A DNA stretch of 64,000 nucleotides, from positions 60,244-124,243 of the forward strand of contig JAXMDZ010000005.1 in the NCBI GenBank assembly GCA_046348585.1. The letters are read 5' to 3'. The notes under the pieces are model-generated. The model was not told where the DNA came from. It searched no databases and saw only the letters and a program-made list of their open reading frames with translations. Shown here one piece after another: positions 27,101 through 31,604 of the stretch. The DNA is from Alphaproteobacteria bacterium (lineage in GTDB: Bacteria; Pseudomonadota; Alphaproteobacteria; Micropepsales; Micropepsaceae). The translations under genes and the position numbers were made by a program. The number at the start of each line of letters is the position of its first letter. The stretch's first letter is position 1.

Positions 27101-27940
27101 CTGCCCGGCCGCCGCAAGGGCTATACCCAGAAGGCCGAGGTCGGCGGGCACAAGGTCTATCTGCGTACCGGCGAATACGAGAACGGCAAGATCGGCGAAA
27201 TCTTCATCGACATGCACAAGGAAGGCGCCGCCTTCCGCAGCCTGATGAACAATTTCGCCATCGCCATCAGCCTCGGCCTGCAATACGGCGTGCCGCTTGA
27301 GGAATACGTCGAGGCCTTCGTGTTCACGAAGTTCGAGCCGGCCGGCCTGGTGCTGGGCAACGACTCGATCAAGAACGCGACCAGCGTGCTCGACTACATC
27401 TTCCGCGAACTGGCGGTTTCGTATCTGGGCCGCCACGACCTCGCCCATGTGGTGCCGCGCGACGACGACGACGAGGATTTGGGCGGCGGCGAGGCGCAGG
27501 ACCGCGAGCGGCTGAAGCGCCCGGCGGCGGTGGAGCGCGCGGTCTCGACCGGCTTCGTGCGCGGCCGCACGCTGAGCCTGGTGGACCGGGGCAATGCGGC
27601 GCGCGTTCTGGAGCCGGAAATCTCGGTCGAGGCGCGGCTGGACGACATCCGCAACCAGATCGCCGAGCAGGTGATGGAACACCCGGTCGTGCGGGTGACG
27701 GAGACGGCGGAGGCGACGAGCTTCAACCGGGTGGCCGAGCTGTTCGACAAGGCGGAGGCGAAGATGTCGCCCGCCGAGATCACGCGGCTGAAGCGCGAGG
27801 CCGAAGGCCGCCGCCGCGCCGAGGCGCGCCTCAAAGGCTATGAGGGCGACGCCTGCGGCGCGTGCGGCAACTTCACGCTGGTCCGCAACGGCACCTGCAT
27901 GAAGTGCGACACGTGCGGCTCAACCAGCGGATGTAGTTGA
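24191..27940 (+). CDS. nrdJ: Class II (vitamin B12-dependent) ribonucleotide reductase
   Basis: [35 protein letters not shown]-like domain, C-terminal CxxC...CxxC. Confidence 0.96.
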
Positions 27941-27956
27941 ACTGCAGGGCGACGAA

Positions 27957-29501
27957 TTAAGCTTGGGTCTTGTGCCAATCCACTCGAGGTTTGAACGAAG
28001 GATATCCTTCGTTCACCTTCTCTAAGATTCGATTCAGAATCTTACAGGCATCCATAAGAACTGACGGGACCCTACCATTTTCTCTCGGCACCCGATGCAA
28101 TCGATGCAGTGGATTCAAGCACGGAGTATAGGACTGCTCGCGGATTGCACCCCATTGGCCATGCACAGAAGCTGAAGTCCAACTGTAGTATCTATCGTAT
28201 AAGTCTTTTGATCCTGAAAATTCTGCCATCGATCGAAGATTGTTTCCTGACCAAGCACCCAGTTCGATCTTTTGATACTCCATCCAAGTGTCTTCGTTGG
28301 CCAATTCCTGGAGGTCCTCGATCTTAATGAAGTCCGGAAGCTCCTCTTCCTCTATCATTTTTAAGAATGACAGCTTTGCTTGCCCATAACCATAGTTTCT
28401 ATATTGCGTCCAAAGAGAGTCATCGGCTTTCTTGGATAGGTATTCCAAAGTAATTGCTATTTCAACCAATGCCCTCAAAGCTATGCGGCCCAGCGCTTGT
28501 GAATGCACCGAACCCTCACATGACTGTCGCACTAAATCTATCGCGTAGAGAGCGAAGCCAAAAGTTGCATCATGGCGGGGGTCGATTCCTGTAGAAACAT
28601 CAGTTTCAAAAAAATGCTTCTCCACTTCCCTATATAGTCGGACCAAATTCCCTTTCAGTTCCATAACATTTTGAGGAAAGGGCCACTTCAAATTCAATGG
28701 AAAGCACTTAGTCCTTTCTTTGCACACTCGCCAAAACGACTCTGCCAAGAAGGTAGCCTTGGTGGCACGATCAACTAGTGGCGCGATCATCTCGTTGGGT
28801 AGGCTAAACTCCTCCTCAGACGCTCTAAAACCGATCTCCAAAGATCGTATGGAAGGCCGAACTGACCTCATGTCGCCCCAATGCGGGAATTTCACAATTC
28901 CTCTAATGACGCCCTCCATGTTGCTGGGAAATTTGATGCGGTTAGTAACAATCTTCTGAAAGACTTTGAACCATCGAATGTCCGTGGACCTCTCTGACTG
29001 ATGAAATAATACATGGGATACTGCCGAAGCTAGACGATAAAACGTATCCGTCGGCATTTTTTTCGGAAGAAATTTGTCCCAGTGCTGGAAATCTGGCAGA
29101 ATATCAAAGAATCGCAGAATCGTCATCGCGTCTAATAGCTCCGGGCGCTCAGCAATAGGTTCGAAAACAGAACAAAAATCTTCGTACCTCAAGAACTCAA
29201 TATAGTTATGCACAAGGGGGTAGTTGCAGTACGGCTCCTGAAGTTTGCTAGATAATTCGGCGATATTGCGGAACAATGATATATACTCTTCACGCTTGAG
29301 TTCTGAAGCAAGAACGATCAACCACATGACGTTTGGAATTCCAACGTCTTTCCACGAACTCAGCGACATGCTCTCTTCCATTCTGTGATACGATGATAGA
29401 ATGGTTTTGCCGCGCCGCTTGTGGCTCGCCAACGGCGTGATCATTTGACCGGGGAATTTTGTTGCCCGGATCGAATTTCCACCTTTTTTCTTCTTAGACA
29501 T
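27957..29501 (-). CDS. Low-GC hypothetical protein, DUF5677-like C-terminal domain
   Basis: 514-codon ORF at about 40-45% GC (hand-counted lines). LRALVEIAITLEYL and Y...SASVHG motifs recall DUF5677; CLNPLHRLH motif. Confidence 0.65.
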   Translation of the reverse strand: MSKKKKGGNSIRATKFPGQMITPLASHKRRGKTILSSYHRMEESMSLSSWKDVGIPNVMWLIVLASELKREEYISLFRNIAELSSKLQEPYCNYPLVHNYIEFLRYEDFCSVFEPIAERPELLDAMTILRFFDILPDFQHWDKFLPKKMPTDTFYRLASAVSHVLFHQSERSTDIRWFKVFQKIVTNRIKFPSNMEGVIRGIVKFPHWGDMRSVRPSIRSLEIGFRASEEEFSLPNEMIAPLVDRATKATFLAESFWRVCKERTKCFPLNLKWPFPQNVMELKGNLVRLYREVEKHFFETDVSTGIDPRHDATFGFALYAIDLVRQSCEGSVHSQALGRIALRALVEIAITLEYLSKKADDSLWTQYRNYGYGQAKLSFLKMIEEEELPDFIKIEDLQELANEDTWMEYQKIELGAWSGNNLRSMAEFSGSKDLYDRYYSWTSASVHGQWGAIREQSYTPCLNPLHRLHRVPRENGRVPSVLMDACKILNRILEKVNEGYPSFKPRVDWHKTQA

Positions 29502-29810
29502 TGACAGCAGCCCCGTTTTGACAGCCCACACCAACTTGAGTTGATGCAAATTGCGATATTGTTGGTGACGGATCGGGGTTCGAAGACCACTTACCGTCTT
29601 GTTTAGCCGACGTAACGCAAAAACGCGGTGTGCCGTGGGTGATGATCAGATACTAACAGGTTGTTTGACTTTCCCATTGCCGCCTATCTCGTGGGAATAC
29701 AGCGACAGTTTACTAGATAGCGCCGTGATCTGAAATGCTGCTGTCCGCGCCAAAGGCCCACTTCCGCGAGCGGGAAGCGCGAAGACGTTTTCGCGTGCTT
29801 CGCCGGGCAT

Positions 29811-29930
29811 CTTCCCCCGATGGGGGAAGGAGGCTTGCTCCTGCCGGCGGCGCCGCACTCTCCCCTTCCCCCAGCGAGCGCCGCAGGCGGTCGCGGTGCG
29901 GGGGAAGGTGGCGCGTAGCGACGGAAGGGA
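29811..29930. repeat. Palindromic repeat cluster left of the DUF559 gene
   Basis: cttcccccgatgggggaagg (29811-29830); ccttccccc...gggggaagg stem (29864-29908) followed by tggc-gcgtagcg-acggaaggg. Confidence 0.8.
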
Positions 29931-29965
29931 GGCTTCGATGGCCTTCGCCGCGCAGCGGCGGCCGC

Positions 29966-30304
29966 TCACGTGCGCGTCAGCGCTCGGTAGATCGTCTCGA
30001 TGACGTCGCGGGGGCGCTTGAAGACGTCTTCGTTCTGGAATCGCAGAACGCGGATGCCTTGTCTCTCCAGGAACGCCGCGCGCCGCGCGTCATAGGCGAG
30101 CGCAGCGTCATCGAAGTGCTGGCCGCCATCGAGTTCGACCGCGAGCTTCTCGGCGAAGCAGTAGAAGTCGAGGATGTAGGGCTCCGCCGGGTGCTGGCGG
30201 CGGAAGCGGTAGCCTTCAAGCTGCTTGCGGCGCAGCAGCGTCCAGAGCCGGCGTTCGGCCTCCGTCTGGTTGCGGCGCAGGGCGCGGGCGTTGGGGTTCG
30301 GCAT
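29966..30304 (-). CDS. DUF559 / Vsr-like PD-(D/E)XK endonuclease
   Basis: ARALRRNQTEAERRLW, FRRQHP, ILDFYC, VELDGGQH, GIRVLRF. Confidence 0.9.
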   Translation of the reverse strand: MPNPNARALRRNQTEAERRLWTLLRRKQLEGYRFRRQHPAEPYILDFYCFAEKLAVELDGGQHFDDAALAYDARRAAFLERQGIRVLRFQNEDVFKRPRDVIETIYRALTRT

Positions 30305-30343
30305 CGGGGTTATTCTGCCACGCGGCGCTCCACGCCCAAGGCC

Positions 30344-30385
30344 CCCTTCCGACCCTTCGGGCCACCTTCCCCCGATGGGGGAAGG
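30344..30385. repeat. Palindromic repeat right of the DUF559 gene, inverted relative to the left unit
   Basis: cccttccgacccttcgggccaccttcccccgatgggggaagg; 30366-30385 is identical to 29811-29830. Confidence 0.8.
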
Positions 30386-31254: not shown

Positions 31255-31275
31255 CGGGGGGCGGGTGTGGGGGCG

Positions 31276-31321
31276 GTGCGTCCTTCGAGACGGCCGCTTT
31301 GCGGCCTCCTCAGGATGAGGA
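31276..31321. repeat. REP-like intergenic repeat, copy 1
   Basis: gtgcgtccttcgagacggccgctt...cctcctcaggatgagga; second copy at 47080-47127. Confidence 0.85.
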
Positions 31322-31604
31322 CCGGCGGGGTGGTTGCTGGCGAAGGAAAATTTTGGCCGGCGCGAAACCTTTTGGGGCGGGCCGGCGAATATCCCTGTGC
31401 AGGCTGGACATGAGTACGGCCCGTCTGTCCGCCGACTGTCCCTGGTCCGGCGCAAGGCCCTTCCCTCCAATGGGGCCTCGACGGCCCCCTCCGCCTGCCT
31501 GACCCCAAGGCGCGGACGGGGGCCGCGATTGCGCCCCGCCCCGCCGCCCCTCATGCTGAGACCGCAATCGGACCGCGGGAACGCGCGGCCGCAGGGAGAG
31601 ACGC

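Follow-up and report, generated by a model that had tools for sequence, protein, structure and literature searches.

A DUF559 nuclease gene set between repeats of the BoxC/PIT/TMECO intrastrand triplex class, and a family-wide association of the two

Across bacteria, repeats of the BoxC/PIT/TMECO type number in the thousands; the class has been on record since the 1990s and has been tied to genome instability, and earlier work on BoxC/PIT repeats reportedly includes that of Bachellier et al. in the 1990s and of Hoyne & Maher in 2000. To our knowledge, they still lack an assigned partner protein, a mechanism of spread and a function. DUF559 proteins form a very large family of small nucleases for which functional data are almost nil. 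The REP/RAYT systems, to which an earlier note on the present locus had likened its architecture, are said to have been described by Nunvar in 2010 and Ton-Hoang in 2012.

Holder et al. (2015) define the ‘intrastrand triplex motif’ (TM in the following), called BoxC or PIT element before, and give its E. coli consensus as CCCTCNCCC-N3-6-GGGNGAGGG-N3-GGGNGAGGG (PMC4666352). As single-stranded DNA the TM adopts a purine-motif triplex in vitro, the CD and NMR evidence covering the E. coli TMECO sequence only, and RNA is reported not to support triplexes of the purine-motif type. According to the same paper, TM loci in E. coli are prone to rearrangement, PIT elements show neither promoter nor terminator activity there and a stable triplex was not seen in vivo; no relation of TMs to flanking gene functions or to mobile elements was detected, and the words ‘endonuclease’ and ‘DUF559’ do not appear (PMC4666352). 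As for the protein family, in vivo work exists on one DUF559 protein, Caulobacter VsrA, which acts in the manner of a mismatch nuclease linked to methylation; it is induced by the SOS response and does damage in the absence of 5mC methylation (PMC12907096).

The window, by which we mean the whole 64-kb stretch of DNA analysed here, contains one DUF559 gene and no second one elsewhere (Table 1). The earlier identification of this ORF as a DUF559 endonuclease holds up well: the 112-aa protein scores 132.6 bits against PF04480 in a Pfam profile search with a cut-off of 20.6, matches the solved DUF559 protein PDB 3HRL with E = 5e-23, and keeps the catalytic motif D46 / E57-x-D59 / H63 / D72 intact, all five residues being invariant in an alignment of 24 homologs. 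Judging from dN/dS values of 0.14-0.22 relative to its orthologs, the gene is under purifying selection, and on this basis the protein looks functional.

Three repeat units surround the gene. The earlier note had described two palindromic repeats bracketing it; the bracketing is real, while the units number three rather than two and are all tripartite rather than plain palindromes. By comparison with other copies, a unit spans ~45-80 nt and, when read on the pyrimidine-arm strand, runs from a Y arm (CCTTCCCCC) through a short or long loop 1, an R arm (GGGGGAAGG) and a GC-rich mini-hairpin to a G-rich block (GGAAGGGGG) followed by a tail starting with CCTTGGGCG. The closing G-rich block does not repeat the R arm, nor is it complementary to it; it is the mirror image of the R arm, with agreement at 9/9 positions in unit U and 8/9 in unit R, and with a degenerate box in unit D, while pairing between Y arm and R arm is 9/9 in all three. 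Loop 1 measures 3 nt in unit U and 27 nt in unit R, and loop 2, of 13-14 nt, pairs with itself. Several finer details proposed earlier were likewise recovered: the 20-mer CTTCCCCCGATGGGGGAAGG is exact at both of its sites (29811-29830 and 30366-30385), the left unit is an inverted copy of the right one (29899-29929 versus 30344-30374, 87% over 31 nt and 74% over 54 nt), the inner stem-loops differ and yet pair (TGGCGCGTAGCGAC versus GGCCCGAAGGGTC), and the left hairpin does contain a nested sub-hairpin. The hairpin pattern occurs twice in 64 kb, compared with 0.05 occurrences expected and with none of 100 shuffles reaching two, and no further copies of the repeat were found elsewhere within the window, which thus holds one cluster only. 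The folding energies by themselves are unremarkable (z = -1.5 to -2.2) and were not used as evidence; the significance of the units rests on conservation. Unit U is kept in three orthologs (L128, L129 and L040) and in one paralog (L089), its loop-2 hairpin showing compensatory changes, and the layout of unit R is identical in the orthologs, with differing sequences in the long loop 1.

Table 1. Coordinates of the features at the locus, in window positions
Feature	Position	Strand	Remarks
DUF559 (Vsr-like PD-(D/E)XK) nuclease gene	29966-30304	-	112 aa; Pfam DUF559 E = 6.8e-39
Unit U	30342-30385	- (gene strand)	ends 37 nt upstream of ATG; score 18/18
Unit U, parts		-	Y arm 30377-30385; loop ATC 30374-30376; R arm 30365-30373; loop-2 mini-hairpin 30351-30364; mirror box GGAAGGGGG 30342-30350
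Unit U, conserved 3' tail CCTTGGGCGTGGAGCGCCGC	30322-30341	-	dispersed solo copies in related MAGs have an identical tail
Unit R	29864-29931	+ (inverted relative to gene)	begins 35 nt beyond stop codon; score 17/18
Unit R, parts		+	Y arm 29864-29872; 27-nt loop 1 29873-29899; R arm 29900-29908; loop-2 hairpin 29909-29922; mirror box GGAAGGGAG 29923-29931
Nested hairpin GCGAGCGCCGCAGGCGGTCGC in loop 1 of unit R	29874-29894	+	
Unit D, degenerate third unit	29737-29830	- (gene strand)	direct repeat with unit U
Unit D, parts		-	Y arm 29822-29830; loop 29819-29821; R arm 29810-29818; loop 2 expanded to 44 nt, with hairpins of its own, 29766-29809; weak mirror box GGAAGTGGG 29757-29765; tail to 29737
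Strain-level breakpoint	29863-29864		outer edge of the Y arm of unit R; six contigs diverge
Cargo gene, DUF5677 / PADLOC DitA candidate defence protein	27957-29549	-	DitA E = 4e-57; low GC (46%)

By their sequence, these units belong to the BoxC/PIT/TMECO class of intrastrand triplex motifs, as a long-loop variant of it; they are not REPs, and the REP association suggested earlier gives way to this assignment. They have a Y arm of at least 8 nt, an R arm complementary to it and a mirror purine block (G*G-C, A*A-T and T*A-T triads being allowed), and they share with the published motif this tripartite build, the intergenic multi-copy habit, the frequent inverted doublets, the rearranged loci and the combination of conserved arms with variable loops. 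The occurrence in many copies, in both orientations and as inverted doublets is seen in related MAGs and in many phyla, the window itself supplying one cluster. In these related MAGs the unit is dispersed also as solo copies and as inverted doublets that enclose no gene, in both orientations and far from genes. The short loops that define the class elsewhere (1-6 nt for ITxF, N3-6 and N3 for TMECO) are exceeded in the window units, by the 27-nt loop 1 of unit R and by a loop 2 that is a GC hairpin of 13-14 nt as opposed to the loops of up to 6 nt used in the ITxF search; the window units further differ in having the arm CCTTCCCCC in place of CCCTCNCCC, in carrying a conserved 3' tail of ~20 nt, and in flanking a DUF559 gene with a link that extends across the family, whereas for the published motif no tie to flanking-gene function or to mobile elements was reported. 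The mirror character of the third block extends beyond the window. In a test that did not presuppose it, covering 17 different asymmetric purine arms found upstream of DUF559 genes, the best match averages 8.1/9 in mirror versus 7.1/9 in direct orientation (p = 8e-4), and in none of these arm types does the direct match beat the mirror match. The exact 19-mer hairpin is present at more than 117 places in GTDB genomes of many phyla, and a perfect mirror box lies within 60 nt of 59 of its 123 genomic copies, as against 1 of 123 random places.

The association of the repeat with DUF559 genes was examined in 80 loci (49-60% identity) collected by a peptide-pattern scan of metagenome contigs. In the 100 nt before the start, these loci average 0.80 perfect 8-bp hairpins each, the background being 0.076 per 100 nt. 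A same-strand TM (Y-R-R') within 200 nt upstream accompanies 50 of 74 unrelated metagenomic DUF559 genes but only 4 of 192 other genes on the same contigs (68% versus 2%, p = 8e-31), and a strict detector gives 31/76 versus 1/201 for controls, so that the enrichment of the repeat beside DUF559 genes anticipated in the earlier note is borne out in an orientation-specific form. Viewed from the repeat, 113 of the 131 TMs that the strict detector finds in 388 kb fall within 300 nt of a DUF559 gene. After removal of redundancy, the upstream, gene-oriented unit is present at 50/67 genes, mostly 20-80 nt from the start codon, and a downstream inverted unit at 20/60, with 17 of these 20 units beginning between -12 and +22 nt from the stop codon. 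The same TM-DUF559 layout recurs in the orthologs, in one paralog, and in N. gonorrhoeae, Deinococcus proteolyticus, Picosynechococcus PCC 7002 and Sphingomonas parapaucimobilis. As far as these counts go, the linkage is too strong, too consistently oriented and too widespread for chance or for mere co-residence in hot spots.

The reverse search, started from the repeat, found a DUF559 gene within 500 nt at 5 of 117 hairpin loci among the matches listed; therefore, the repeats far outnumber the genes, as REPs outnumber RAYTs. That the majority of solo TMs in these matches have no DUF559 gene nearby is at the same time an observation that counts against a partnership. Some DUF559 homologs in the alignment carry Pro/Gly-rich C-terminal extensions, which arise because the annotated ORFs run into the repeats, the inverted unit beginning at the stop codon. 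‘DUF559 domain-containing protein’ is also 14-fold enriched among predicted targets of programmed inversion (PMC9881135), an enrichment for which the flanking inverted units would account; at the locus itself, metagenome contigs show no joint that an inversion between units U and R would leave, although rare forms would escape such contigs. Both the repeat class and the protein family are already known, and the link between the two appears unreported: it was not found in the openly accessible papers searched on DUF559, intrastrand triplexes, ycjD and BoxC.

The suggestion in the earlier note that the locus is a mobile unit survives only in part. The window gene occupies the same chromosomal position in three other genomes, making four related genomes in total, where it is flanked by a variable gene on the side of a class II ribonucleotide reductase and by a variable stretch on the side of Amidohydro_2. 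This synteny was established by ORF-level blastp, tblastx being dropped as swamped by high-GC noise. Its orthologs show 72-80% protein identity, close to the values of the neighbour genes. The window copy is old, under selection and inherited vertically, and not recently mobile. Presence/absence polymorphism of the gene among relatives, which the earlier note had expected, is not seen, the gene being present in all four genomes and the polymorphism lying beyond the repeats.

Over evolutionary time, on the other hand, insertion does have an argument in its favour. Sphingomonas parapaucimobilis has three DUF559 paralogs, each with its own TM subtype, located co-directionally inside yqeY/dnaG, sufB/sufC and pntAA/pntAB, and sufB and sufC are adjacent in most relatives; in five metagenome loci a DUF559 gene lies directly upstream of pheT. 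The presence of TM+DUF559 cassettes inside otherwise contiguous operons argues for insertion; judged by gene order, the cassette has clearly entered new locations in the course of evolution. In Azospirillum lipoferum the sufB/sufC spacer is occupied by a GIY-YIG nuclease gene. On plasmids DUF559 is rare, with 41 of 72,556 records, mostly chromids, and this survey rules out the idea of DUF559 as a typical plasmid-borne mobile gene. A gene-less allele with an intact target doublet was not found at any locus examined.

What does vary at the locus is its cargo. Among metagenome contigs that encode an identical DUF559 protein, four are colinear with the window, and six part from it precisely where the outer repeat arm of unit R begins, at 29864, and go on with two more units and a CAP12/Pycsar-TIR gene in place of the DitA candidate. 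In the relatives the same slot is filled by Abi_C, DUF4062, a JAB-like ORF or a CAP12/Pycsar-TIR gene. Assembly contigs from sludge metagenomes break at 29864 and 30392, and within one sludge sample the two alleles coexist at unequal depth. Strains swap defence genes, DitA versus TIR, at the repeat-arm junction.

As the most economical reading we favour a functional partnership between DUF559 and the triplex motif, a cassette of the two having been seeded in many phyla, the nuclease acting on the folded motif and the repeat clusters serving as junctions; we place its likelihood somewhat short of even. According to this reading, the TM as single-stranded DNA would fold into a hairpin with a reverse-Hoogsteen third strand, loop 2 having perhaps grown into the GC mini-hairpin in the window units. 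DUF559 would be the dedicated protein partner of this class of repeat, within a cassette presumably made up of a sense-strand TM, a spacer of ~20-80 nt, the DUF559 ORF and, often, an inverted TM that begins at the stop codon. Such a cassette might have been seeded, from time to time, into intergenic spacers of many phyla and then passed on vertically under purifying selection. By our inference, the folded single-stranded TM is what the Vsr-like nuclease binds or nicks, in which case the upstream TM copy might be its site in cis, for autoregulation or for loading, and any role of the nuclease in the spread of the repeat would follow the same line of thought. Nicks of this kind could turn TM clusters into recombination junctions, of which the one at 29864, where the alternative defence genes were apparently exchanged, would be an example.

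The main rival reading keeps everything in cis: DUF559 would be an ordinary solitary Vsr-type mismatch or repair nickase, the upstream TM its own control region, for instance a supercoiling- or ssDNA-sensitive operator or an insulator, and the dispersed copies would be unrelated. The upstream unit is fixed on the sense strand at a narrow distance from the start, the window gene is stable, syntenic and under apparent purifying selection, and VsrA, with its DUF559 domain, its SOS induction and its damaging action without 5mC methylation, provides a precedent; the E. coli TMs that persist without ycjD, considered below, point the same way. However, a control element acting in cis leaves unexplained the dispersed multi-copy family in the same genomes, the frequent inverted copy at the stop codon and the cassettes inside operons of the sufB/sufC type. 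It also has to contend with the lack of promoter and terminator activity of PIT elements in E. coli (PMC4666352), with a promoter and terminator scan of the locus that predicted no sigma-70-like promoter and no terminator, and with the orthologous loci, where no cytosine methyltransferase family is present within 10 kb. A hand-picked promoter, TTGGGC-16-CAGAAT with a leaderless start, matches at only 7 of 12 positions and is not claimed. With regard to the methyltransferase, the window gene resembles VsrA, whose methyltransferase gene is unlinked as well, and linkage is thus not obligatory for Vsr-type proteins; the two also share fold family, catalytic residues and small size, while the defining context of the window gene is its triplex-motif repeats, with no evidence here of T:G mismatch repair (PMC12907096). 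On balance, we regard this rival as unlikely, yet as the one to be taken most seriously.

E. coli offered a comparison by way of copy numbers, which we do not count in favour of the partnership. K-12 has 23 TM units and one DUF559 gene, ycjD; no TM lies upstream of ycjD, and unit no. 9 is situated 170 nt downstream of it on the same strand. Of 5426 complete E. coli genomes, 3377 have ycjD and the rest an 8-kb efflux operon between sapF and fabI, so that ycjD alternates with this operon and not with an empty site; the operon is eefRABCD, and ycjD marks phylogroups A, B1 and C together with ST69 and ST182 (PMC12817139). In an evenly spaced sample obtained with a composite ycjD+TMECO query, the median number of other TM units is 16 in ycjD-positive versus 6.5 in ycjD-negative genomes (p = 2e-7). 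Lineages without ycjD nevertheless keep 9-17 TMs, and ycjD-positive variants of D/E type, with a gene longer by 12 nt, have 10-15. Because O157, without ycjD, has 12 and the ycjD-positive D/E-type genomes 10-15, the gap tracks phylogroup, and copy number as support for the partnership was rejected on account of phylogenetic confounding. At tauD-hemB, TM presence or absence reflects replacement of the whole spacer, with no target-site duplication at the TM site and hence no evidence of cut-and-paste insertion there. Several observations count against the partnership: that VsrA acts as a mismatch nuclease, that ycjD has no upstream TM, that the tauD-hemB spacer was replaced, that TMs are kept without ycjD, and that PIT elements are inactive as promoters or terminators and were not seen as a stable triplex in vivo (PMC4666352).

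A second alternative, which we consider rather improbable, is that of a selfish gene of the homing type, in which a free-standing Vsr-like (EDxHD-related) homing endonuclease would target the TM or the doublet and be copied into pre-existing repeats by break repair, the repeats being landing sites and not products. The DUF559 profile does detect the I-Bth0305I-type structure 3R3P, a Vsr-like homing endonuclease, although at weak similarity (E = 2e-4), and the EDxHD enzymes employ the same kind of Vsr-like catalytic core in a selfish site-specific nuclease (Dassa 2009, PMC2677866). Like free-standing homing genes, the cassettes occupy intergenic spacers within conserved operons, one such spacer holding a GIY-YIG nuclease gene in another genus; the units that enclose the gene are also known as gene-less inverted doublets, and ycjD has replaced the eef operon at sapF-fabI at least two times. 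In contrast to homing endonucleases, DUF559 has no intron or intein context, and the protein, at only 112 aa, has no extra DNA-binding domain. The missing empty-site allele at the loci examined, the fixation of the window gene in four related genomes and the rarity of the family on plasmids noted above all speak against homing.

Passive co-localisation, by which repeats and small accessory genes without functional relation gather in recombination-prone, island-rich spacers, would suit a locus that is a hot spot for defence genes and TM loci that are unstable in E. coli, but it was already disfavoured and is highly improbable in view of the unit found at 68% of DUF559 genes versus 2% of same-contig neighbours, the strong orientation bias with constrained spacing, and an association that holds in tight housekeeping operons with no island. 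An RNA element, in which the unit would be a structured 5' UTR or an sRNA regulating DUF559 at the RNA level, could draw on the compensatory changes that keep loop 2 and the main hairpin paired and on the position of the unit on the sense strand upstream of the ORF, but deserves hardly any credence, since scans of the window, of the locus and of 17 related loci matched no Rfam family at gathering or E-value thresholds, the conserved mirror box is left without a Watson-Crick partner, purine-motif triplexes are reported absent in RNA (PMC4666352), and units lie in both orientations and far from genes; the negative Rfam result and the unpaired mirror box led us to drop it.

Returning to the partnership of nuclease and repeat, the RAYT/REP-like architecture proposed in the earlier note stands in outline: the gene is bracketed by inverted units, solo copies are dispersed, and the arrangement recurs at other loci. 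Its components differ from those of RAYT/REP: there is no HUH Y1 transposase, in keeping with the earlier note, and the repeats are not REPs; DUF559 is the sole ORF between the repeats, and no match to Y1_Tnp was found. We know of no strand-transfer chemistry for a 112-aa hydrolytic Vsr-like nuclease. As in the REP/REPIN-RAYT systems, a single-copy, vertically inherited nuclease gene is enclosed by inverted structured repeats, and further copies of the repeat, single or in doublets, are scattered over the genome; unlike there, the nuclease is a hydrolytic PD-(D/E)XK enzyme of the Vsr-like type where RAYT is an HUH Y1 transposase, the repeat is of the triplex type where a REP is a simple hairpin with a GTAG-type guide, and transposition chemistry is not evident for DUF559 (PMC2817692, PMC3333891). 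A RAYT/REP-like partnership is, all the same, plausible. More tentatively than the partnership itself, and as a possibility for which we would claim roughly one chance in three, we propose that DUF559 proteins are the missing trans-acting partners of BoxC/PIT/TMECO, that is, structure-specific Vsr-like nucleases for single-stranded DNA folded as a hairpin plus third strand, which would be a chemically unrelated counterpart of REP/RAYT and might seed or maintain the repeats and make junctions for island exchange.

The tight, oriented link across phyla gives an orphan repeat a candidate protein partner, and gives both DUF559 and the TM a testable hypothesis, namely that of a structure-specific nuclease acting on an intrastrand triplex. 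It would also explain two puzzles, the Pro/Gly-rich extensions of DUF559 proteins and the flagging of DUF559 as a target of ‘programmed inversion’, and it points to the repeat clusters as junctions at which defence genes may be swapped.

The slot with the ribonucleotide reductase gene on one side and the repeat cluster on the other is a hot spot for defence genes. In the window it is filled by a low-GC insert (46% GC vs about 69%) encoding a protein that matches DitA, a candidate defence protein of PADLOC (E = 4e-57), and in a different strain of the same species (L003) the slot holds a CAP12/Pycsar-TIR gene. Related genomes with an orthologous DUF559 locus carry an Abi_C gene (L128), a DUF4062 gene (L129) or a JAB-like ORF (L040) at this position.

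Coordinates of the features discussed (window positions unless a replicon is given)
Feature	Coordinates	Details
Low-GC insert, 1.8 kb	27940-29735	ORF 27957-29549 (-), DUF5677 protein
High-copy dispersed repeat, distinct from the triplex-motif units	31266-31336	GTCCTTCGAGACGGCCGCTTTGCGGCCTCCTCAGGATGAGGAC; between OMP and amidohydrolase genes
ycjD locus (L210)	E. coli K-12 NC_000913.3 1351000-1351830	

The second dispersed repeat of the window reached an assembly word depth of 320-910 vs 10-60 in its flanks in four sludge metagenomes, where numerous contigs connect the repeat with unrelated flanks.

The hairpin of the triplex-motif units recurs across phyla, whether by transfer or by convergence. 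Among the matches listed, the exact 19-mer CTTCCCCCATCGGGGGAAG occurs in GTDB genomes at loci L011-L127, and the layout 3' of it is kept: GTG, hairpin, then GGA(T/A)G(A/G)GGG. The taxa sharing both 19-mer and layout, again among the matches listed, include Xanthomonadales, Comamonadaceae, Hyphomicrobiales, Caulobacterales, Anaerolineae, Dehalococcoidia, Peregrinibacteria and Clostridia.

At the ycjD locus of K-12, the 3' end of the DUF559 gene is partly duplicated (GGAGACGGTGCTGGAGAATATTC...) downstream of the gene, ahead of TMECO no. 9. Other strains have an ORF that continues directly into the unit and takes the TGA within GGGTGAGGGG as its stop codon. The upstream side of ycjD has a different, perfect 16-bp hairpin in place of the triplex motif. 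In Sphingomonas parapaucimobilis YK209 (L217-L219), the annotated starts of the DUF559 CDSs fall within or ahead of the upstream repeat units, and the N-terminal extensions derived from the repeats therefore look like annotation artefacts; the L217 CDS is annotated at 179 aa vs about 120 aa for the domain.

In five metagenome loci (L138, L144, L148, L149 and L163) pheT lies directly 3' of the DUF559 gene, with the DUF559 stop and pheT start codons overlapping (ATGA); a Pfam match confirms the pheT identity in L138. The sufB|sufC spacer, occupied by a DUF559 gene in Sphingomonas, by a GIY-YIG nuclease family gene in Azospirillum lipoferum 4B (L186, hit H186) and by a small gene with a heavy-metal-binding domain in Paracoccus, is apparently a site at which small genes land repeatedly.
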